This document shows positions 4,821 through 62,092 of a stretch of DNA of 64,000 bases, piece after piece. The notes beneath the pieces were generated by a model. The model was not told the origin of the DNA and did not search any database. It saw only the letters and a list, made by a program, of their open reading frames with translations. This stretch comes from Acidimicrobiia bacterium (GTDB lineage Bacteria > Actinomycetota > Acidimicrobiia > Spongiisociales > ZC4RG35): positions 563 through 64,562 of the forward strand of contig DASPGH010000051.1 of the NCBI GenBank assembly GCA_035620735.1, in the 5' to 3' direction. Each line of letters starts with the position of its first letter. The first letter of the stretch is position 1. The position numbers were made by a program, and so were the translations under genes.

Positions 4821-4848
4821 GAGGGCCCCGCCACATGGCGGGGCCCTC
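4821..4848. terminator. bidirectional stem-loop between convergent dctM and dctP
   Basis: Perfect 12-bp GC-rich stem, GAGGGCCCCGCC acat GGCGGGGCCCTC, placed 6 nt after the dctM stop and 21 nt after the dctP stop. Confidence 0.65.
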
Positions 4849-18215: not shown

Positions 18216-18968
18216 ATGCTCCAGGTCGAACATCTCACCAAGGTCTACGAAAACGGGACCGTCGCCCTCGAGGACGTCAGCTTTTCGGTCCCCGATGGAC
18301 AGTTTCTCGCCGTTATCGGCCTCTCCGGGTCCGGGAAGTCGACACTGCTTCGCTGCGTCAACCGACTGATCGAACCCACCGATGGTCGCATTCTGTGGAA
18401 CGGAGAGGATGTCACCAAGGCCTCCCAGGAGGACCTCCGACGATTCCGTCGCCGGGTCGGCATGGTGTTCCAGCACTTCAACCTGGTTCATCGATCCAAG
18501 GTCATCACCAACGTCCTGGCCGGCCGGTTGGGATACACGAACCCTGCGATGGCCTTGGTGAACCGGTTCTCCAGGTCCGATGTCGACAACGCCCTCTCTC
18601 AGCTCGATCGGGTGGCGCTACGTGAAAAGGCTCTCTCCCGCGCCGATGAGCTCTCCGGGGGCCAACAACAGAGAGTCGGCATAGCGCGGGCTCTGATGCA
18701 GGAGCCGGAGATGATTCTGGCCGATGAGCCGGTCGCATCACTCGATCCGGTCCTGGCCCATTCGATCATGCGCTACCTCGAGCTGATCAACTCCGAGGAC
18801 GGGGTCACCGTGATGTGCTCGCTCCACTTCCTCGATCTCGTGCACAAGTACTCGGATCGGGCAATCGCCCTCAATGAGGGGAAGCTGGTGTTCGACGGCA
18901 TGCCGTCCGAGATCGACGACGATCGCTTCAAGGCCATATACGGCCAGGAGGCAGAACGGGTTGGCTGA
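18216..18968 (+). CDS. phnC: phosphonate ABC transporter ATP-binding protein
   Basis: ORF from 18150. ATG 18216 gives [11 protein letters not shown]. It carries Walker [10 protein letters not shown], signature LSGGQQQRV and Walker B ILADEP. Confidence 0.9.
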
Positions 18969-21264
18969 CACCAAGGAACGAACCGGGGTCGGGCCGCCGG
19001 ATCCGCTGACATCGGAGAACCCGGCCGGGGAAGGACCCCCTCCGCCACGCGATGCGGGCGAAGGGAGGGGGCGGTGGCGCCGACCGCTGATGATCATCCT
19101 CGGGCTTCTTGGGGGTGTCGTCATATATGCGCTGGCTTTCCAGCAGACCGAGGTCGACCTGACCCAGATCACGTCGGAAACCCGGCAACGGTCGCTCACC
19201 AACATCCTGCGCAACCTGGTCCAGCCCGAACTGATCACTTACGACACCGTCGAGGAGGCCGTGACGAGCGACCTGGCGATACCGTGCGGCCCCCCGGTGT
19301 CGACCGATCCCCGTCTGGTCGTCGAGCCATCCTGTGGGGACCCCGGGGAAGTGGTCACCGTCACGGGTTCTGGCTTCGAACCGCGCGAGTTCGTGGAGCT
19401 TCGCTTCATCCCCGACACCGAGTTCGACATCACCCTGAGACTGGCCACGACGAACGCAGATTCGGACGGGTCGTTCTCGGTCGACGTGACACTCCCGGAT
19501 CGCAGCTCGGACGAGTCTCAGAAGCTGCTCGCGGTCACCAAAGAGCCGATCGGGAGCTGGGGCAACCGCCTCGAGGTGTATACGGACGCCAACGAGAATG
19601 GCGTCGAGGACAACCCGATAGTGCCCGGGTCGGGGGATTTCTCCTTCTCACTCGGCGGGAGCCCGGACATCCCCGCGGTGGCGCTGGTCAACCCTGCCGG
19701 AGAGACACCCAACTTCGTCACCACCGGCGAGCCATTCGATGCAGTCAACGGTGTGGCTCGGGGCCAGACCGCAGTCCCATTGGGGGAGGACACATCGATC
19801 TCAGGGCCGATCATCGTCGCCATCGAGTCCGTGACGGGGGATGTGGAAGTCCAGCTCGAAGCACCTGCCGGATTCGATCTCACGAACTGGCGGGCGGCGG
19901 TATACGACGGCGCCACTGGGGAGAGCGGGACAACGAATTTCGTGGCCGACTCCATCCAGTTGTCGCCAAGGATCTCGGAAACGGCGTGGATAACCCTGGA
20001 CAAGATCCTCGAGACGGTCTTCCTCGCCCTCATCGCAACCACCGCCGGGCTGATGATCGCGGTCCCGCTCAGCTTCATCGCTGCGCGCAACATCATGAAG
20101 GACATCTCGATCACGGTCACCAACTTCGTCTTGATCCTGATTGCCGTGCCACTCGGAGCCGCCGCAGGCCTTCTCCTCGCCAATGCCACCCGCTCGCTGG
20201 TCGCTCCCCTCGAAGCCAACCCCCTCGGGCTCGTCCTCGGATTGGCGGCTCTTTCAGGGCTGATCTTCTTTCTGATCCGGTCTGCCATCCCCACCGAGGA
20301 CGCTGAAATCCCAAGCCGCACGGAGCGGCTCAGACGAGCCGGATTGATGGGTCTTGCCGGGCTCGCAGTGCTGGTCGGGCTTCTCCTCCTGGCGATGCTG
20401 CTCGAGGAGATCGGGGTGTTCGCCACGGTCAATTTCGGGTGGCTCGGGTTCCTCGGCGCCTTTTTCTCCGCCCTTGGTGAGATCGTAAACGTCGGATTCG
20501 GTTTCATCGCCGCCCTGGCCACAGCCGGTGTCATGGCAAACCTGGCGTCAAAACTCGGCTACAGCATCAGAAAGCACACTCCCAGGTCCGCGGTGAGAAC
20601 GCTCAACGTGGTGCTGGCGGCCTTAGCCGGCGCTCTCTGGGCGGTGATAGTCGGCCAAATCATCGATTGGTTCTACCAAATCGGAGATGTTCAGACCCTG
20701 GTGGTGATCCCCGCGGTGATCGGAGCCATCATCGGGATCGCGATCGCCTTGCGAGGCATGCACAAAGGCGAGATCCAAATCGGGCTGTCGATCTACTACA
20801 TGGCTCGAACGGTGTTCAACACCCTCCGCTCCATCGAGCCATTGGTCATGGCGATCGTGTTCGTGGTTTGGGTTGGGGCCGGTCCCTTCGCCGGAGCTCT
20901 CGCCCTGGCTCTACATACGGCGGCGGCCCTGGCGAAACTCTATTCGGAGCAAGTCGAGTCGATCGCAACCGGCCCCATCGAAGCCGTTCGCGCGACCGGG
21001 GCGAACCGGCTCCAGACCATCGTGTACGCGGTCGTCCCTCAGATCGTCCCGCCTTACATCTCGTTCACGATGTATCGGTGGGATATCAACGTCCGCATGT
21101 CGACCATCCTCGGGTTCGTGGGTGGCGGGGGCATCGGCTCGATACTCCAACAGAACATCAATCTCCTCCAATATCGTGCTGCGGCCGTGCAGATGCTCGC
21201 CATCGCGATCGTGGTCGCATCGATGGACTACGCCTCATCCCGCCTGCGGGAGCGCTACGTCTAA
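18961..21264 (+). CDS. phnE: phosphonate ABC transporter permease, greatly expanded (about 725-767 aa)
   Basis: The PhnE core is present once (ETVFLALIATTAGLMIAVPLSFIAARN ... RSIEPLVMAIVFVVWVGAGPFAGALALALHTAAALAKLYSE ... EAVRATGANRLQTIVYAVVPQIVPPY). It is interrupted by a roughly 270-aa extracytoplasmic insert and an extra block of TM helices. TTG 18961 overlaps the phnC stop, and ATG 19090 is the alternative start. Confidence 0.75.
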   Translation: MADTKERTGVGPPDPLTSENPAGEGPPPPRDAGEGRGRWRRPLMIILGLLGGVVIYALAFQQTEVDLTQITSETRQRSLTNILRNLVQPELITYDTVEEAVTSDLAIPCGPPVSTDPRLVVEPSCGDPGEVVTVTGSGFEPREFVELRFIPDTEFDITLRLATTNADSDGSFSVDVTLPDRSSDESQKLLAVTKEPIGSWGNRLEVYTDANENGVEDNPIVPGSGDFSFSLGGSPDIPAVALVNPAGETPNFVTTGEPFDAVNGVARGQTAVPLGEDTSISGPIIVAIESVTGDVEVQLEAPAGFDLTNWRAAVYDGATGESGTTNFVADSIQLSPRISETAWITLDKILETVFLALIATTAGLMIAVPLSFIAARNIMKDISITVTNFVLILIAVPLGAAAGLLLANATRSLVAPLEANPLGLVLGLAALSGLIFFLIRSAIPTEDAEIPSRTERLRRAGLMGLAGLAVLVGLLLLAMLLEEIGVFATVNFGWLGFLGAFFSALGEIVNVGFGFIAALATAGVMANLASKLGYSIRKHTPRSAVRTLNVVLAALAGALWAVIVGQIIDWFYQIGDVQTLVVIPAVIGAIIGIAIALRGMHKGEIQIGLSIYYMARTVFNTLRSIEPLVMAIVFVVWVGAGPFAGALALALHTAAALAKLYSEQVESIATGPIEAVRATGANRLQTIVYAVVPQIVPPYISFTMYRWDINVRMSTILGFVGGGGIGSILQQNINLLQYRAAAVQMLAIAIVVASMDYASSRLRERYV

Positions 21265-21339: not shown

Positions 21340-22341
21340 ATGGCTGAGTTCCTGCGTCGCACGCGTGTCGAGCGGGAGCAGCTCGAGCACCAGCTCCTGG
21401 CCTCCGCCGCCACCAAGGCAGACGAGAGCCAGGGCCGCGGCGAGCCCGAAGAGGACGACGAGTTCCGCACGGCATTCGAGAGAGATCGGGACCGGGTCGT
21501 CCACTCCAAGGCCTTCCGACGTCTCAAGCACAAGACCCAGGTGTTCCTCAATCCTGACGGTGACCACTATGTCACCCGGATGACACACACAATCCACGTC
21601 ACCCAGGTGGGGCGGGCCATGGCCAGCGCCCTCGGACTGAACGAGGACCTCACCGAGGCGATCTGTCTGGCCCACGATGTGGGTCACTCCCCATTCGGAC
21701 ACACCGGTGAGGATGCCTTGTCCCCCCTCATCGGCGAGGAGTGGCTTCACTCGACGCACGGTGTGCGCACTCTCGAACTTCTGGAGCCACAGAACCTGAC
21801 CCATGAGGTCCTCGACGGGGTCCGGGCCCACTCATGGAAGATCGATACGCCACCGGAGACCCCGGAAGGGTGGTTGTGCCGGTATGCCGATCGCATCGCG
21901 TACCTCACCCACGACGTCTCCGACGCCCTACGTGCGGGAGTTCTCGAGTACCACGACCTGCCCGTGCGGGCGTTGACCACGTTTGGCGCCACATCGAGAG
22001 AATGGATCGACTCGATGATCACGGCCGTGATCGAATCCTCTTATCGCTCAGGGGTGGTGACCATCGACGACGAGCACCTCGACGTGATGGAGGAGTTGCG
22101 CGATTTCATGTTCGAGCGGGTCTATCTCAGCCCGTCATCGGAAGCCCAGAAGGAGAAGGCGATCGTGGTGATCCAGGATCTCGTCGGCTACTACCACGCA
22201 CACCCGGCCGAGGTCCCCGACTCCTACACCGTCCCCGAAGCCGACTCGCTGACCCGTGCCGTCGACTACGTAGCCGGCATGACCGACCGCTCCGCCATTC
22301 GCACCCACGACCGGCTCTTCCGCCCCACATTGCTGGATTGA
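21340..22341 (+). CDS. dgt: dGTP triphosphohydrolase-like HD-domain protein
   Basis: ORF from 21295. It has the motifs FERDRDRVVHSKAFRRLKHKTQVF and HDVGHSPFGH, and the C-terminal DYVAGMTDR. ATG 21340 is chosen. Confidence 0.85.
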   Translation: MAEFLRRTRVEREQLEHQLLASAATKADESQGRGEPEEDDEFRTAFERDRDRVVHSKAFRRLKHKTQVFLNPDGDHYVTRMTHTIHVTQVGRAMASALGLNEDLTEAICLAHDVGHSPFGHTGEDALSPLIGEEWLHSTHGVRTLELLEPQNLTHEVLDGVRAHSWKIDTPPETPEGWLCRYADRIAYLTHDVSDALRAGVLEYHDLPVRALTTFGATSREWIDSMITAVIESSYRSGVVTIDDEHLDVMEELRDFMFERVYLSPSSEAQKEKAIVVIQDLVGYYHAHPAEVPDSYTVPEADSLTRAVDYVAGMTDRSAIRTHDRLFRPTLLD

Positions 22342-22350
22342 TCCACGCAA

Positions 22351-22393
22351 GCGTGTGCAGGAGCCGTGGCCTGGCCACGGTATCTGCACACGC
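22351..22393. repeat. REP-like imperfect palindrome, copy A (probable bidirectional terminator)
   Basis: GCGTGTGCAGgagCCGTGGCC t GGCCACGGtatCTGCACACGC fills the 52-nt gap between the convergent dgt and sipW-like stops. It shares a 16-nt arm (GCGTGTGCAGATACCG, on the opposite strand) with copy B at 48599. Confidence 0.65.
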
Positions 22394-22945
22394 TCAGCCA
22401 CGGCGACGGCCACGCAGGGCAGGGTCCCCGTCGGGCCAGAGCATCAGACCCACCGCGGCGCCGCCCATCGCGGCGATGAACCACCAGGAACGGACAAATC
22501 CGAGGACCTCGCCACCGAGCGGTACCTTCATCCGGGCGACACCGAGCACATCGAGGTTCGACGGAAACCATTCGTCGGGGAAGTCTGAATTGTCTCCCTT
22601 TGTGACCCACCCGTTGCCATCCCCCCCGACCACACGGTGGATAACCGTCTTGCCCTCACCCAGAGATCCCGCCGGGATCCTGTAGAGGATGATGTCACCG
22701 ATGTCGACCGGCTCCCGCCAGGCAACCACTGCGTCACCGAGTTGATAGGTGGGCTCCATCGAATTGCCCGCAACCATCACCAGACCCAGTCTTCCTCCCA
22801 GTGTCGATGGCCAGAGGACCAGGGCAAGGAGGATCACCAGCATCCACTGCACGAACCCGACTGGATTGAGGTGCCTCGTCAGCCAACCAATCGGCCGGCT
22901 CGTGTCTATGTGGCGTCCTGCGACCTTCTCGGGATAAGTCGTCAT
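22394..22945 (-). CDS. signal peptidase I, SipW-like (ER/archaeal type, S26B)
   Basis: 183 aa with a single N-terminal anchor, a serine box VAGNSMEPTYQLGD, a later histidine box KTVIHRVV and a GDNSD motif. 4-nt overlap with the upstream cargo gene. Confidence 0.8.
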   Translation of the reverse strand: MTTYPEKVAGRHIDTSRPIGWLTRHLNPVGFVQWMLVILLALVLWPSTLGGRLGLVMVAGNSMEPTYQLGDAVVAWREPVDIGDIILYRIPAGSLGEGKTVIHRVVGGDGNGWVTKGDNSDFPDEWFPSNLDVLGVARMKVPLGGEVLGFVRSWWFIAAMGGAAVGLMLWPDGDPALRGRRRG

Positions 22946-23688
22946 GGGAGGAGCTCGATGGTGAAGTTGTCGAACCGGCTCTGGTTGTCGTTGTCCGCGA
23001 CCAACCCGAACCAGGTGTTGCCGACGAGTTGTGGAGCCTCCGCCGTCAGATCGAAGGGGCCGATCGCAACAGAGCCGAACTCCACGAACATCTCGTTGCC
23101 GACGATCTCGATCGACATCGTTGCAGCCGCGACGTCACCCACCGCGGTGACGACCGCGAACGGTGCCTCCCCGGCGACACCGATGGTGAGCTGTTCGACA
23201 TCCCTCTCGTAGATGACATAGAAGAACTCGCCAGAACCGTCACCGAGCAGCGAGATGCCGGCGCCCGATCGATCGTTCTGATGGGAGATGTCCGAGATGT
23301 CGGCGCTGATTCGGATCCCGGACGATTGGGCGATCTCGACGCTGAGGTTGGCGAGCGGGGTCCGTTGCTGGGCTCGAACCACACCGCTACCCAGGCACTG
23401 CCAGTTGCCGCTGTGGCTGGCCCAGATCGCCCCGGACTCGTCGATCCAGCCGTCGATGAGGTTGGAACAGCCGGAGAAGTCGGTGGAGACGATTGGAGTG
23501 GGAGTGTCCGGGAGATCGATGTGGACGTCGGTGGACTGCATGAAGATCGAGCCAACGGAGATGCCCCCGAGGGAGGCAGCAGAGGCGGCCAATGCGAGCG
23601 CGACGACACCCACGACGACGATCGTCACCGTGGTGGCTCGGGCGAAGCGCCCGACGTGTCGCGACCGCTTTCTCATCTGGCCGGACAC
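22942..23688 (-). CDS. exported protein with SipW-class-like signal peptide and concanavalin/LamG-like C-terminal module
   Basis: 248 aa. A basic n-region and h-region are followed by AASAASLGGIS. The C-terminus TWFGLVADNDNQSRFDNFTIE resembles jelly-roll lectin-fold ends. Confidence 0.6.
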   Translation of the reverse strand: MSGQMRKRSRHVGRFARATTVTIVVVGVVALALAASAASLGGISVGSIFMQSTDVHIDLPDTPTPIVSTDFSGCSNLIDGWIDESGAIWASHSGNWQCLGSGVVRAQQRTPLANLSVEIAQSSGIRISADISDISHQNDRSGAGISLLGDGSGEFFYVIYERDVEQLTIGVAGEAPFAVVTAVGDVAAATMSIEIVGNEMFVEFGSVAIGPFDLTAEAPQLVGNTWFGLVADNDNQSRFDNFTIELLP

Positions 23689-23694
23689 GGGGTC

Positions 23695-23718
23695 AGGGCG
23701 GGTCAGTCGACCCGCCCT
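23695..23718 (-). other. intra-operon stem-loop between the two cargo genes
   Basis: Perfect 10-bp stem AGGGCGGGTC agtc GACCCGCCCT in the 55-nt gap. There is no U-tail on the transcribed strand. Confidence 0.45.
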
Positions 23719-23743
23719 TCACCCGTGTTTGGATCGTTGCCGA

Positions 23744-24133
23744 TCAGCCGCTTATGGCGACTGCGATGCGGGCGATTGCCTCCGCATCTGCTGGTGCTGC
23801 AAACGTGACGACCTCGCTGCTCGAGGCGATCGGATCGACACTGCCGCTTCCAACTGACGTGAGGGCGGCGTCGGTCACATCGACGGCGAGACGCTGGCCC
23901 AGGCAGTCAGCATGAATGCCACTGATCGTGACTGAAGCCACGACATAGCGCCCGGAAGCGTCAACCGTGGGATCTGCAAAGACAGCGTCCACGCCATCTG
24001 TGTCGCAACTGCCGACAAAAGTCGCGTCGGCACCCACGTCACTCGTGGTGATGCCGCCGAGGCTTGCCGCCGAAGCGGCGATCAGGCTGAACGCAAGGAC
24101 GGCCAGGACGACCGCCAGTACCTTCTTACGCAC
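23744..24133 (-). CDS. small exported protein (129 aa) with SipW-class-like signal peptide
   Basis: GTG start 9 nt after AAGGAG. The signal peptide MRKKVLAVVLAVLAFSLIAASAASLGGIT is followed by a V/T/S/A/D-rich mature part of about 100 aa with two Cys. Confidence 0.65.
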   Translation of the reverse strand: MRKKVLAVVLAVLAFSLIAASAASLGGITTSDVGADATFVGSCDTDGVDAVFADPTVDASGRYVVASVTISGIHADCLGQRLAVDVTDAALTSVGSGSVDPIASSSEVVTFAAPADAEAIARIAVAISG

Positions 24134-24272
24134 TGGGAAACTCCTTCTCTACGAACGTGCAGGCGTCATATCGGGCCGCACCGGAGGCGACTTGAAAGTG
24201 CCAGGGGGGGTCGATCGACCTAGTCCGCAACTGGTTCGCACCGGTCGCAGACGATCCCTAACGTGGCGTTTC

Positions 24273-25160
24273 GTGCTTCAGGTCAGGGACCTACACAAAT
24301 CATTCGGTGACATCCATGCCCTCGACGGGTGCAGCTTCGAAGTAGCTCCGGGAGGCATGCTCGGCTTCCTCGGTCCCAACGGGGCGGGTAAGACCACGGC
24401 GATGCGAACGATCTTCCGTCTCCTCCGCCCCGACTCCGGCTCGGTGACATGGAATGGCGATCCGATCGATCCCGACGATCTCCTCCGCTTCGGCTACATG
24501 CCCGAACAGCGGGGTCTCTACCCGAAGATGAGAGCCGGCGACCAACTCACATACCTCGGACGGCTCCATGGCATGTCGAAACGAGACGCACGTGAGTCTG
24601 CGGAGAAGTGGCTGAACCGGTTCGGGCTCGGCGGTCGTGTGGGAGATCCGGTCGAGTCGCTTTCCCACGGAAACCAACAACGCGTCCAATTGGCCGCCGC
24701 TCTCGTCCATGACCCCGAGCTCCTGGTCCTCGACGAACCTTTCAGCGGTCTCGACCCGATCGCAGTAGAGACGATGTCGGATGTGCTTCGCGAGCAGGCC
24801 GCTGCCGGAAAGGCAGTCGTGTTCAGCTCACATCAGCTCGACCTCGTCGAAGACCTGTGCGAGGAGGTCGCCATCATCAACGCCGGTCATGTCGTGGTAC
24901 GAGGCAACGTGGAGCGTCTGAAGGACTCAGCGCCCATACGACATCTCGAACTGGAGACCGAGGGGGATCCTTCGGAGCTCCTCGAGTTCCTCGACGGCGT
25001 GCAGTCGACGCACATGGATGGTGAGCGTCTCACCGCGATCATCAGCGCCGACACCGACGTCAGAGGGTTCATCGCCCACGCCCAGCGAGCGGGCAAAGTG
25101 AGGCATTTCGCCTACACGACCCCCTCCCTGTCCGACCTGTTCCTCGAGGCGGTGAGATGA
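24273..25160 (+). CDS. ABC transporter ATP-binding protein (NatA-like, ABC-2 exporter)
   Basis: The ORF opens at 23967, but that part is antisense to the cargo gene. GTG 24273 gives VLQVRDLHKSFG. It carries Walker A GPNGAGKTT, signature LSHGNQQRV and Walker B LVLDEP. Confidence 0.85.
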   Translation: MLQVRDLHKSFGDIHALDGCSFEVAPGGMLGFLGPNGAGKTTAMRTIFRLLRPDSGSVTWNGDPIDPDDLLRFGYMPEQRGLYPKMRAGDQLTYLGRLHGMSKRDARESAEKWLNRFGLGGRVGDPVESLSHGNQQRVQLAAALVHDPELLVLDEPFSGLDPIAVETMSDVLREQAAAGKAVVFSSHQLDLVEDLCEEVAIINAGHVVVRGNVERLKDSAPIRHLELETEGDPSELLEFLDGVQSTHMDGERLTAIISADTDVRGFIAHAQRAGKVRHFAYTTPSLSDLFLEAVR

Positions 25161-40610: not shown

Positions 40611-40665
40611 CTTCGATGACCAATGGGGACGGGACCTCGGTCCCGTCCCCATTTGGAGGCTCCAC

Positions 40666-59284: not shown

Positions 59285-60050
59285 CTACCCGGTCCCACGC
59301 GCTCGAAGCTCTCCGACGACGCCATTGAGCACGTCTGCCACGGGGTCGGGCTGGTCGAGATGCACATCGTGGCCGCTGTCGTCGATCTCGACCACTTGTA
59401 AGCCAGGTCGTGCTGAGATCATCTCCTCGATCTCATCGTCAGCGATTACGCCATCAGCTGCCCTGATCAAAGGTGAGCGCTGAGAGCTGACTCCACTCGT
59501 GAGCTCGACTAGTTCCCGCTAGGGCACGCATGGTGGCAAGCATGGCCGGAGGATCGAAGCGGGACACGAATCCGTTCGGCGTCGTGGCCCGCCCTTCGAC
59601 CCAAGCCGGTGTGGAAAGCCGTCCTTTCCAAAGAAACGCGCTGCTTCTTGTGTCGGCGAAACTGCCCGGCCATCTATCGAACCATGAGCGGAGAATCCTT
59701 TGCGCAGTTTTCTGATACCCAGCGGCTACGCATGGGCCTCCTCCAGCTACACACGGAACGACTACCTCGACCACTGGGCCGATGGCGGAGAGACCACCGT
59801 CAAAGAGGCGTCCTGCTCTGCCGGTCCTGCCACAGTGAGAGCATGTCAAACAGCGGGAACAGAGACGCACCCGAACCCGAACCTAGGGGTGGCAGTTTCC
59901 CCACCACCCCGGAAGAAACCGAGCAGCAAGCGGAATCCGATTGGTCGTTGACTGGTCGCACTCGTCCCGAGGGCTTCGAAGAGGCGGGCCCGGGCATGCC
60001 GTGAAGGCCTGGGTCGAAGCCGTTGGCGCGCTCAGGGACTTGGAGCCTCA
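59285..60050 (-). pseudogene. alpha/beta hydrolase pseudogene (multiple frameshifts)
   Basis: The C-terminal piece LIRAADGVIADDEIEEMISARPGLQVVEIDDSGHDVHLDQPDPV (59285-59470) is a typical hydrolase end. The preceding piece FDPPAMLATMRAL...SQLSALT is in another frame. The nucleophile-elbow region is degenerate (VVPCVAGGGP). Confidence 0.45.
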
Positions 60051-60217
60051 AATAGACACATCGAGTCCGCCTCGATGGCCGGCACTCCTTGGCACCGGGT
60101 GGAGGTTCTATAGAGGGTCTCGATCAAAGCAGGTGTCTGATGACTGTGGACCTGATCGGCGCTGCTGGCATGTCCATTACAGGACCGTAAACGCCTTTGG
60201 CCGCGCTTTACCTTCGG

Positions 60218-61333
60218 CTATGGGACGAACGGCGCGGCGGTTTCAGCCTTCGAGCGTCGCTGATGGTCTGTGGTGATCGCATCGACAAAGTTGGCCAGGC
60301 TCTGGTTCGCCATCTTCTTGATGAATACCATTCCAATCCGGAAAAGAGCCTCCGACCAGCGGGGTCCCCTGAATCCTCCCCATTGCCGGATCAGGTGAGT
60401 GCCGGTCGGAGTCTCCTCGAGGTAGGTGACGACCAGCCCGCTTCCCTTCAGCGGCTTGGGCAACATGTCTTCGGTCACCACCTTCGTGAACGGCTCCCAC
60501 TCGAGAATCGTCTGAGGCGTCACCCTGTTGCCGTGATAACACCGATAGACGCTGCCGACACCGACTCGCCCTCCGACGCGATCGGCGATCTCCACCCTCT
60601 CGACTCCCAACAGGATGTTACGAAACACTGGTGAGGACAGGTAGTCCCACAAGACGGCAGGGCTCATAGCGACATCGGCTTCCTGAGTGAGCAGCCGTTG
60701 GGAGTCGTCGAGAGTGATCCCCGGCTTGTCCGTTTGGTGATACACCTCGCCCAAGTCCTGCACGTAGGTCTTAACCAAGCCAAAGTCGGCAACATCCTCT
60801 TCATGTGGCACCAAGACCGTCACCTCTCGTAGACCAAGGCGATCCCAGGCGGAGTGTGTGTAGACGCAATAGGCATTCAGCCCGAGCCGATCGGTCACCG
60901 TGTTCTTCAGCAACCGGTGCACCAGGTTGACGTCGGGTCCCAACAGCTCGTCGTAGCTTCCGATGCGCTGAACCAGGAACGAGCCGAAATGGATCACGAA
61001 TTTGAGATCAAGCGACGACACATTGGCACATGCATTGCATTGACAGGTGTTGTTGAGGACCATCAAGTCGATAGCTCGACGGAACGCCACGTAGGTGCCC
61101 TCGACGAGGTCGAGAAACGTTCGACCGTCGCTGAAGGCATGCTCGAAGGCGTACGAGAACACGGCGTCCCCCTCGAGTTTCGAGATCCTCATCGGGGGGC
61201 CGGCATGGTCGACGAGGAGTTGGAGCAGGTCGGTGAGAGTCCCTCGTGCATGTTCGAGTTCGGAATCGTTGAGATATCCGGTGTAGCCAGAGATGTCCGC
61301 GACACAGAGGAACGCCTGTTGCTCTTCGGGCAT
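60218..61333 (-). CDS. DUF2652-domain protein with SRPBCC-like C-terminal half
   Basis: 371 aa. The segment FLCVADISGYTGYLNDSELEHARGTLTDLL ... KLEGDAVFSYA ... NTCQCNACANVSSLDLKFVIHFG ... DVNLVHRLLKN matches DUF2652 as I remember it. Confidence 0.65.
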   Translation of the reverse strand: MPEEQQAFLCVADISGYTGYLNDSELEHARGTLTDLLQLLVDHAGPPMRISKLEGDAVFSYAFEHAFSDGRTFLDLVEGTYVAFRRAIDLMVLNNTCQCNACANVSSLDLKFVIHFGSFLVQRIGSYDELLGPDVNLVHRLLKNTVTDRLGLNAYCVYTHSAWDRLGLREVTVLVPHEEDVADFGLVKTYVQDLGEVYHQTDKPGITLDDSQRLLTQEADVAMSPAVLWDYLSSPVFRNILLGVERVEIADRVGGRVGVGSVYRCYHGNRVTPQTILEWEPFTKVVTEDMLPKPLKGSGLVVTYLEETPTGTHLIRQWGGFRGPRWSEALFRIGMVFIKKMANQSLANFVDAITTDHQRRSKAETAAPFVP

Positions 61334-61618
61334 ACCAGCCTGAGCCTAGGTGCCAATATCGAGGCCCGGTCTCAGAGGTCAGGTCGGTATTGAAGTCGAG
61401 GGCTCGAACGATCCCGATCTCACATCCGGGCCAATTGGGTCGAAACGTCCGGCTGCGTCAACGATCCCCCGCACGACGAGGCACTTCCCGTGGGGTTAGG
61501 TGCCAATGCAACTCGCCCGTCAATGGCCGATCAGCCGAATGGGTTACCAAAGGTCGTCATGCTCGAACCCCACGACGAGCACGGGACACTGAAATTCACT
61601 GCTTCACGGATTTCGCAG

Positions 61619-61648
61619 CGCGCTCGGAAGGACTCGAACCCTCAACCT
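61619..61648 (-). pseudogene. tRNA 3'-end fragment (variable loop, T-arm, acceptor 3' strand)
   Basis: The minus-strand RNA reads AGGTT-GAGGG-TTCGAGT-CCTTC-CGAGCGC-G, a canonical T-arm with G53 and C61. No matching 5' acceptor strand, D-arm or anticodon arm could be folded upstream. Confidence 0.45.
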
Positions 61649-62092
61649 CCTGATCCGTAGATCTCCAAGCGGCGTCCAGAGGCGTCCAAGCGGAGTCCAT
61701 CCCTGCAGGAAATGCGGGCTCTCGAGTCCACCAGGGGTCGATGGCAGTCCGTGAGCATACGCAGAGAATGGCTCTCCACTTTGCTCACAGACCCGCCACG
61801 GCCAACCCACCGCGACCAGGCGGGATTGGAGTTAGGGCCCAAAGACCCTATCCCGACCGAGCATCGCGACCCTAGTTTCGCTGGAAAGGCGCGGGGATGA
61901 GCTGATGACCCATGCAGAGTTCAAACCGGTGATCGCCTCGGGGGAGAGACCCGTTCGCCCAGCATGCTCGATTCGACGCGAGGGTCCCGCCTCACGTTCC
62001 CAATTCGTCGGTCAGCCAGCCAGGACGACCATCAGCGACCTCCAAGGCTCCTTCATCGGAAGTTCGTACCACCGACTATGGAAGGTGAATCC

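Follow-up and report, generated by a model that had tools for sequence, protein, structure and literature searches.

A predicted archaeal-type signal peptidase and two candidate cargo proteins sharing an N-terminal tag in a gene cassette of Acidimicrobiia

We analyzed a 64-kb stretch of contig DASPGH010000051.1 from an Acidimicrobiia bacterium (hereafter the window, whose numbering is used for all coordinates) and describe within it a minus-strand cassette of three co-directional genes, encoding in order a small cargo protein, a large cargo protein and a signal peptidase. The two cargos carry the identical segment AASAASLGGI at the end of their predicted signal peptides, and the peptidase is assigned by sequence to the archaeal/endoplasmic reticulum (ER)-type class of signal peptidase I (S26B in MEROPS). 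We put it at only just short of an even chance that this dedicated peptidase releases both cargos with a common N-terminus serving as a donor strand, leading to a fibre of small subunits with a lectin-fold tip or nucleator.

The small cargo gene (23744..24133, minus strand) is an open reading frame (ORF) of 129 amino acids (aa) with a GTG start, and direct reading of the sequence places a Shine-Dalgarno element, AGGAG (24141..24145, minus strand), 7 nucleotides (nt) 5' of this codon. The large cargo gene (22942..23688, minus strand) encodes 248 aa when counted from a GTG; an alternative ATG at 23676 gives 244 aa and is used by an NCBI copy (P0049), which is 100% identical to the large cargo and comes from an 'Acidimicrobiia bacterium' metagenome-assembled genome (MAG). 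The peptidase gene (22394..22945, minus strand) encodes 183 aa from an ATG that overlaps the TGA of the large gene (ATGA, 22942-22945), and the two genes are thereby predicted to be translationally coupled. The ORF list and our reading of the sequence agree with a first-pass annotation of this DNA on the three ORFs, their sizes, their 4-nt overlap and, exactly, their positions.

The segment AASAASLGGI occupies residues 19-28 of the small cargo (24050..24079, minus strand) and residues 34-43 of the large cargo (23560..23589, minus strand). A six-frame regular-expression scan of the window recovered A.A..LGG[IV] at these two sites only, in keeping with the first-pass annotation, which had singled out the identical segment. 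It is written with different codons in the two genes, indicating that its identity is held at the protein level and does not stem from recent DNA duplication. In each protein it follows a basic n-region (MRKK... in the small cargo, MRKRSRHVGRF... in the large cargo) and a hydrophobic core, the classical n-h-c leader that had also been described before. No twin-arginine motif was found in either cargo, nor was a conserved RR seen in their homologues. Export through the twin-arginine translocation (Tat) pathway, as in the haloarchaeal tafi system, was rejected on this ground.

Conservation is concentrated in this segment. The block A-S-A-A-[ST]-L-G-G-I was 82-100% conserved over 48 sequences of the small family and 47 of the large, reaching down to 34-39% identity, and constituted the most conserved part of both cargo families, the globular domains being less conserved (mean column identity 44-55%). 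In 44 large-cargo homologues, ASAASLGGI lay within the same 82-100% range. It was likewise conserved beside peptidase homologues in related genomes, a check that the earlier annotation had proposed. We then numbered positions from the Leu of LGG in 303 members of the wider small family. Position -5 was Ala (86%) or Gly (12%), position -4 was variable and allowed bulky residues (S, M, A, F, L), and position -3 was Ala in 100%. Ala at -2 (96%) and Ser or Thr at -1 (97%) were followed by Leu (98%), Gly (95%), Gly (87%) and Ile, Leu or Val (94%). Further on, positions +8 to +11 were [LV] (87%), Gly (88%), Ala (85%) and Asp (70%), so that conservation runs about 12 residues past the predicted cut. 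Ala or Gly at -5, a variable -4 and Ala at -3 reproduce the classical -3/-1 pattern and point to a cut after A-x-A, which in the small cargo would fall between residues 22 and 23 (A-S-A|A-S-L-G-G-I) and in the large cargo would make A38 the first mature residue. This comparative pattern predicts mature N-termini of the form A-[ST]-L-G-G-[ILV], and it fits the cleavage originally suggested from the two window proteins, which would leave ASLGGI at both N-termini.

The hydrophobic region of the small cargo raises a different reading of the motif. FSLIAASAA-x-L was invariant over the 48 small-cargo homologues, and such invariance of the h-region (FSLIAASAA) would be unusual in signal peptides that are cleaved; small-xxx-small patterns are, moreover, known to mediate the packing of transmembrane (TM) helices. 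AASAASLGG and its hydrophobic segment might accordingly form an uncleaved membrane anchor or helix-packing motif that tethers both proteins, perhaps docked on the peptidase-like protein of the cassette. We hold this to be improbable, as the peptidase keeps an invariant catalytic set of Ser, His and Asp, the motif follows the -3/-1 rule, its position -2 to the cut being variable and often bulky, and across the wider family A-x-A-A-S-L-G-G is conserved but the h-region is not.

Linkage of the three genes was examined in related loci. The small-large-peptidase trio was found again in 25 fetched loci besides the window (L002 being a duplicate of L001 in all locus counts), and its synteny holds in relatives with identities as low as about 34-40%. 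A peptidase was present in 16 of the 16 independent small-protein-seeded loci with more than about 1.2 kb of downstream sequence; five small-protein-seeded loci without it are truncated contigs. Among GTDB species genomes, a peptidase relative with an adjoining small gene occurred in Acidimicrobiia (including Ilumatobacteraceae), Actinomycetes and Microbacteriaceae MAGs, in the cultured Pengzhenrongella phosphoraccumulans (L018) and on a truncated Nocardioides contig (L026). Both the syntenic trio and the highly conserved segment thus speak for the tie between peptidase and cargos that the first-pass annotation had proposed, and by these sequence comparisons the link is well supported. Because the two cargos are co-inherited with an S26B peptidase and share a sharply conserved signal/cleavage motif, they are probable substrates of the cassette peptidase.

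A contrary explanation would have both proteins carry ordinary Sec signals that are cut by a housekeeping LepB, with an unrelated S26B gene next to them and a decapeptide that reflects ancestry or composition. Ala/Ser-rich c-regions are common and A-x-A sites are open to LepB. Nevertheless, near-invariance of the motif over two unrelated families and more than 300 sequences, co-occurrence of the peptidase wherever it could be assessed, and the ATGA overlap of the large and peptidase genes make this explanation highly improbable.

Two further loci are recorded as separate observations. A locus binned as 'uncultured Boseongicola sp.' (Alphaproteobacteria; L013, 5405-6549) contains an Acidimicrobiia-like peptidase (62% identity), with only a C-terminal remnant of the large-cargo gene, and lacks the small gene; a binning error, a decayed cassette or both probably account for it. 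In an Actinomycetes MAG (L016, 3069-4391), the small-gene/peptidase pair is preceded by a 440-aa protein. The end of its signal, ...GHATSETSAAWQD, is similar to the A-x-W/F-x-D motif of the TasA type. The protein had no NCBIfam or Pfam match, and its sequence hints at one peptidase locus serving two signal classes.

The class of the peptidase was assigned from several comparisons. It scored 65.2 bits against TIGR02228 (archaeal-type signal peptidase I; cut-off 51.85) over residues 31-150, and peptidase relatives in two further loci (L024 and L037) also passed this model. In contrast, it reached 25.4 bits against the LepB-type model TIGR02227, under the cut-off of 47. A sequence search of the PDB returned human SEC11A/C as sole matches, with the SMEP, HRV and KGDN boxes aligned to GNSMEP, VIHRVV and KGDN, and no LepB structure was matched at E<=10. 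The catalytic residues are Ser62 (TCG, 22762-22760, in GNSMEP), His103 (CAC, 22639-22637, in VIHRVV) and Asp118 (22594-22592, in KGDN), all invariant in 4 peptidase orthologues. A His thus stands in the general-base position in place of the LepB Lys, giving a Ser-His(-Asp) set instead of a Ser-Lys dyad. By sequence, then, the enzyme is an archaeal/ER-type (S26B) signal peptidase I, and a LepB-type identity was rejected. Against the Bacillus SipW equivalog model NF046067 it scored 16.4 bits (cut-off 190), and SipW orthology was rejected as well, the enzyme being SipW-like in class only. The serine box NSMEP and the later histidine box VIHRVV are therefore where the first-pass annotation saw them, and its ER/archaeal-type assignment stands; its "SipW-like" label does not extend to orthology. 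Its single-anchor layout is doubtful and probably wrong. The protein has an N-terminal anchor at about residues 31-50 and also, towards its C-terminus, a conserved stretch of moderate hydrophobicity, WWFIAAMGGAAVGLMLWP (residues 154-171), with a basic tail after it, which suggests two TM segments, one N-terminal and one probable C-terminal.

Peptidase relatives in five loci (L021, L023, L024 from a Bifidobacterium breve MAG, L025 and L039) appear to be much longer, at 239-354 aa against 183; these lengths are as called or those of the longest ORF, and the extent in L021 is approximate. They would thus carry long C-terminal extensions, and the only extension scanned, that in L024, had no Pfam match.

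Next, we compared the cargos with families known to accompany SipW-like enzymes. Neither cargo matched any Pfam or NCBIfam model at E<=1, and the earlier concern that they might fall into well-characterised families was not borne out. TIGR04088 matched neither cargo at E<=1 nor any of 7 relatives at E<=10; TIGR04089 and TIGR04090, both in the library, matched neither cargo at E<=1; and the TasA/camelysin model NF046066 also failed to match them. TasA itself, run against the same NCBIfam library as a positive control, matched NF046066, TIGR04088 (38 bits, cut-off 19), TIGR04090 and TIGR04089, so the null result for the cargos is meaningful. Membership in the TIGR04088, TIGR04089, TIGR04090, TasA or camelysin groups was rejected on these grounds together with the profile comparison to TasA given below. 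The TIGR04088/TIGR04089 and TasA/camelysin checks that the first-pass annotation had called for hence came out negative, indicating that the signal and the cargos belong to a different, uncatalogued class.

The small cargo consists of a Sec-type signal peptide, a conserved N-terminal extension and a beta-sandwich domain of about 95 aa. It has exactly two Cys (C43 and C77), invariant across homologues. An AlphaFold2 (AF2) model from the family alignment, with a mean predicted local distance difference test (pLDDT) of 82.9, shows a signal helix at residues 2-23 and a seven-strand beta-sandwich at residues 36-128 that reaches pLDDT >90, as the earlier description of a roughly 100-aa, beta-rich, two-Cys protein had anticipated. 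Residues 24-35 are modelled at low confidence. In these monomer models, this is compatible with the donor-strand class and proves nothing about it.

A first search found 48 small-cargo homologues, and a profile search of 1.84 billion cluster representatives found 1,829 relatives (752 at E<=1e-10), all without a name and belonging to Acidimicrobiia and other Actinomycetota, the approximately 1,800 clusters being defined at 50% identity. The best 150 of the 1,829 were nearly all full-length matches of 110-180 aa. A second search gave at least 658 clusters at 90% identity; the 120 of these that were listed are all unnamed or 'hypothetical protein' and without a Pfam domain, and where a taxon was given it was an Acidimicrobiia or Actinobacteria MAG, except for one Gemmatimonadaceae bin. 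All cluster members looked up were metagenomic, and a metagenome locus scan with profile A3 yielded 14 loci. Two unusual members were noted. P0164 (304 aa) joins the C-terminal half of an S26B peptidase to a small-family domain (residues 178-304), and in P0131 (315 aa), which has 6 Cys in all, about 185 further residues come after a small-family domain; they may be gene fusions or merged gene calls.

The large cargo, for which 46 homologues were found, is built from a signal peptide, the shared N-terminal segment, a linker of about 25 aa and a jelly-roll at about residues 65-248. Its two Cys (C74 and C98; no others are present) are invariant across homologues. In the AF2 model (pLDDT 83.8), about 60 N-terminal residues are disordered, those at about 40-60 having low to moderate confidence, and are followed by a jelly-roll that reaches pLDDT >90. 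An invariant cluster of D234/N235 and R162/D163 lies in this domain. Foldseek returned 362 PDB matches to this domain at E<=1e-3, of concanavalin A (ConA)-like lectin, carbohydrate-binding module (CBM) and glucanase type. CBM66, VIP36/ERGIC-53, galectins, GH16 and PL7 were matched with E values of 1e-5 to 1e-6 and a probability of 1.0, and superposition of CBM66 gave a target-normalised template modelling (TM) score of 0.76 and a root-mean-square deviation of 2.8 Å. The Pfam Laminin_G models did not match the large cargo. By its model, then, the large cargo is a member of the fold named concanavalin A-like lectin/glucanase, with membership at the fold level only, and the lectin/LamG-like jelly-roll read from the sequence at first pass is recovered in that sense. 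A profile-profile alignment (hhalign) of the small and large families covered 48 N-terminal columns only (93% probability), in agreement with the earlier statement that the cargos are unrelated beyond their N-termini.

A GC-rich stem-loop lies between the small and large genes (23685..23728, minus strand). It was seen by eye and by folding, and its core is GGGCGGGTC-N4-GACCCGCCC. A 75-nt fold of the region has a predicted free energy of -45.6 kcal/mol (z = -5.9). In 8 related loci a hairpin occupies the corresponding position, in one case with an unrelated sequence. In the alignment of nine sequences, 92.6% of cells are paired, compensatory changes occur in 4 of 12 pairs, and none of 500 shuffles reached the covariation score. 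A check for dispersed repeats found the element to be single-copy in the window, and it has no U-tail. It may act as a partial terminator/attenuator or as an mRNA stabiliser, either of which would raise the ratio of small to large expression.

These features can be assembled into a model. Both cargos would be exported by Sec, because they have a basic n-region and a hydrophobic core and no twin-arginine motif. The S26B peptidase would then cut both at A-x-A|A-[ST]-L-G-G-[ILV], and both mature proteins would share one starting segment, about 13 residues long (ASLGGI-x3-[DS]-[LVI]-x-A), which in the monomer model does not pack onto the folded domain. The analogy to TasA/TapA and tafi suggests that this segment might be a donor strand. 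The abundant small subunit would polymerise head-to-tail, its N-terminal strand inserted into the next subunit, and the lectin-fold protein would cap or nucleate one end, carrying a glycan-binding module. Since it has the proposed donor strand and lacks the small-subunit domain, the large cargo could serve only as such a cap or nucleator. On this proposal the small cargo is a candidate major subunit and the large cargo a candidate tip, nucleator or adhesin, and the fibre-subunit and adhesin roles offered at first pass stay putative. The hairpin 3' of the small gene might keep the small subunit in stoichiometric excess.

Variant operons were compared with this model. Two tandem small genes are found in L004 (2522-3368). 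Another locus (L037, 6001-8941) has two small paralogues, a fusion of a small-family domain to calcium-binding RTX repeats, a 220-aa protein with ...HAASLGT... and a peptidase. In L038 and L040, a pair of small genes is accompanied by a CBM96 protein and an uncalled peptidase ORF; L039 combines one small gene with a ConA-like protein and a peptidase of 303 aa; and the Pengzhenrongella locus (L018) has a Laminin_G_3 protein, a peptidase and two small genes. From their sequences, the tandem paralogues (L004 and L037) and the RTX fusion point to modular minor subunits or tips. By analogy, the layout of the variant operons matches the major subunit, minor subunit, variable tip and signal peptidase I (SPase I) of TasA-superfamily loci.

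A rival explanation for the same cassette is that the peptidase serves cargos that do not polymerise, a small Ig-like protein and a glycan-binding lectin acting as monomers or as a simple complex, with the motif as a recognition and cleavage determinant that includes the P' side. The linkage and motif data fit this explanation equally well, and a number of results weigh against a fibre. The small domain forms a confident seven-strand sandwich in AF2 even without the N-terminal segment. Foldseek of this domain against the PDB gave generic beta-sandwich matches only (best E 0.03), with no TasA, AbpA, Taf or thread subunit among the best 50, and hhalign of the small-family profile against TasA gave a probability of 0.7%. 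No anchor protein, sortase signal, cell-wall-binding domain or assembly factor is encoded in the cassette. The cleavage site is placed by comparative reasoning, and P'-side recognition by the peptidase could by itself explain why residues just past the cut are conserved. The term "dedicated" likewise derives from linkage, with the remainder of the genome, including any housekeeping LepB, falling outside the window. On the other hand, conservation extends about 12 residues past the cut, beyond the usual reading of a signal peptidase, and small paralogues with interchangeable lectin, CBM and RTX partners that share an N-terminus follow the grammar of pilus loci. Considering both sides, we judge the non-polymerising alternative unlikely, though it is the main competitor of the donor-strand fibre.

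The fibre model can be extended beyond the window. We suggest, quite tentatively and expecting that it may well fail, that the approximately 130-aa 'ASLGG' proteins are subunits of an unrecognised class of Sec-dependent surface fibres that requires neither sortase nor chaperone-usher and occurs in at least two Actinomycetota classes (Acidimicrobiia and Actinomycetes). Its fold would be unrelated to the TasA superfamily, its tag would be both the sorting signal for the peptidase and the donor strand, and its lectin, CBM or RTX tips, bearing the same tag, would be interchangeable.

The cassette is flanked by a convergent HD/HD_assoc phosphohydrolase gene and by divergent genes for a DrrA-type ATP-binding cassette (ABC) ATPase and an ABC-2 permease. 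With a convergent gene on one side and divergent genes on the other, it constitutes a three-gene unit. The ABC-2 neighbour is not obligatory, as a two-component system takes its place in L003, indicating that the transporter lies outside the unit. The GG in the motif and these adjoining transporter genes could suggest a double-glycine leader (LGG|I), with this ABC transporter doing both the cutting and the export. However, the DrrA-like/ABC-2 transporter has no C39 peptidase domain and is not conserved at the locus, and the leaders are of the classical n-h-c type; we find this explanation barely credible and rejected it. A scan of 22200-24400 for consensus promoters and terminators found none, and an Rfam scan of the window returned no family at gathering score.

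Other features of the window were recorded separately. ARAGORN called an unusually long tRNA-Pro (tgg) of 98 nt at 61618-61715 on the minus strand, for which an insertion or a false call is possible; the call falls in the 2-kb block with the lowest GC content of the window (60001-62000, GC 0.596). In a phosphonate ABC cluster, a 796-aa ORF (18874-21264, plus strand) matched BPD_transp_1 in its C-terminal ~170 residues only, and its long N-terminal part had no Pfam match. It may be a fusion or an over-extended ORF, because two permease genes, of 421 and 320 aa, are called in the corresponding region of L001. Two perfect inverted repeats with 2-nt loops, at 40622-40653 (15 bp) and 4821-4848 (13 bp), are probably terminators.

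Archaeal-type signal peptidases dedicated to neighbouring fibre subunits are an emerging theme in the biofilm matrices of Bacillota and Archaea. The principle is therefore known already; the libraries and literature searched contain no description of these cargo families, of the signal tag or of such a system in this phylum. Two protein families that lack annotation are defined by the locus, together with a new and very sharply conserved signal/N-terminal tag, and all of these travel with such a peptidase. Even without polymerisation, this tag offers a usable rule for finding substrates of such peptidases. If the fibre model is true, it would describe a glycan-binding adhesive appendage for abundant uncultured Acidimicrobiia of soil and other environmental metagenomes, and the combination of peptidase and donor strand would have been reinvented on a different fold. 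The cultured Pengzhenrongella relative provides an experimental entry point.

The first-pass annotation took the tapA-sipW-tasA operon of Bacillus subtilis as its precedent and knew of no characterised equivalent in high-GC Gram-positives. We also found none in the Actinomycetota literature searched. The precedent itself remains relevant, with the closest precedents extending to the haloarchaeal tafi system, which had not been named. In tapA-sipW-tasA, a TIGR02228-class peptidase is in one operon with its two substrates, and these share sequence across the cleavage site and the mature N-terminus, which is the donor strand in TasA and a proposed nucleating strand in TapA. The N-terminus of TapA is similar to the donor strand of TasA; it has been modelled to complement TasA, and both proteins are processed by SipW (PMC9674648). 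The two substrates divide into a major subunit and an accessory, the split that we propose here. In contrast to that operon, the cassette has no SipW orthologue, no TIGR04088-type signal and no TasA/camelysin cargo. Its proposed subunit, about 105 aa long, is an Ig-like sandwich, whereas TasA is a jelly-roll of about 230 aa; its accessory protein has a lectin domain; and its gene order is subunit, accessory, peptidase.

The tafi system (Tat-fimbriae) comprises TafA/TafE pilins, a TafC tip and the peptidase TafD, and resembles the cassette in having a lectin-domain protein and a signal peptidase in one locus; the resemblance is functional only. TafD is a dedicated peptidase, and its deletion leaves apparently unprocessed TafA (PMC11821415). 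TafC places a laminin-G/ConA-like domain at the predicted tip, and the subunits assemble through strand donation, with neither chaperone-usher nor sortase involved (PMC11821415; PMC12337348). The tafi pilins have Tat signals, unlike the cargos described here. The N-terminal domain of TafC is pilin-like, in contrast to the large cargo with only the N-terminal strand and a linker, and the TafC model NF052521 did not match the window cargos; it matched the Laminin_G_3 protein of the Pengzhenrongella locus weakly (27 bits, cut-off 410). TafD has 4 TM segments and a DUF5305 partner (TafG), in contrast to the peptidase of the cassette, with 183 aa, about two TM segments and no partner.

Loci of the TasA superfamily (AbpA, AbpX, 0406-threads and CanA) typically combine a major subunit, minor subunits, a variable tip and a TIGR02228 SPase I (bioRxiv 10.64898/2026.01.04.697558). 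The cassette has the same locus grammar. It differs in its much smaller subunit and its phylum, and there is no detectable sequence or structural kinship. In Actinobacteria, TIGR04089 'alternate-type signal peptide' proteins presumably adjoin SipW-like peptidases. Like the cargos, they belong to high-GC Gram-positives and are proposed, in the description of the model, to depend on a SipW-like peptidase; they differ in their tag, which is the TasA-like G-G-T-x-A-x-W/F-x-D, whereas that of the cassette is A-x-A|A-S-L-G-G-I.

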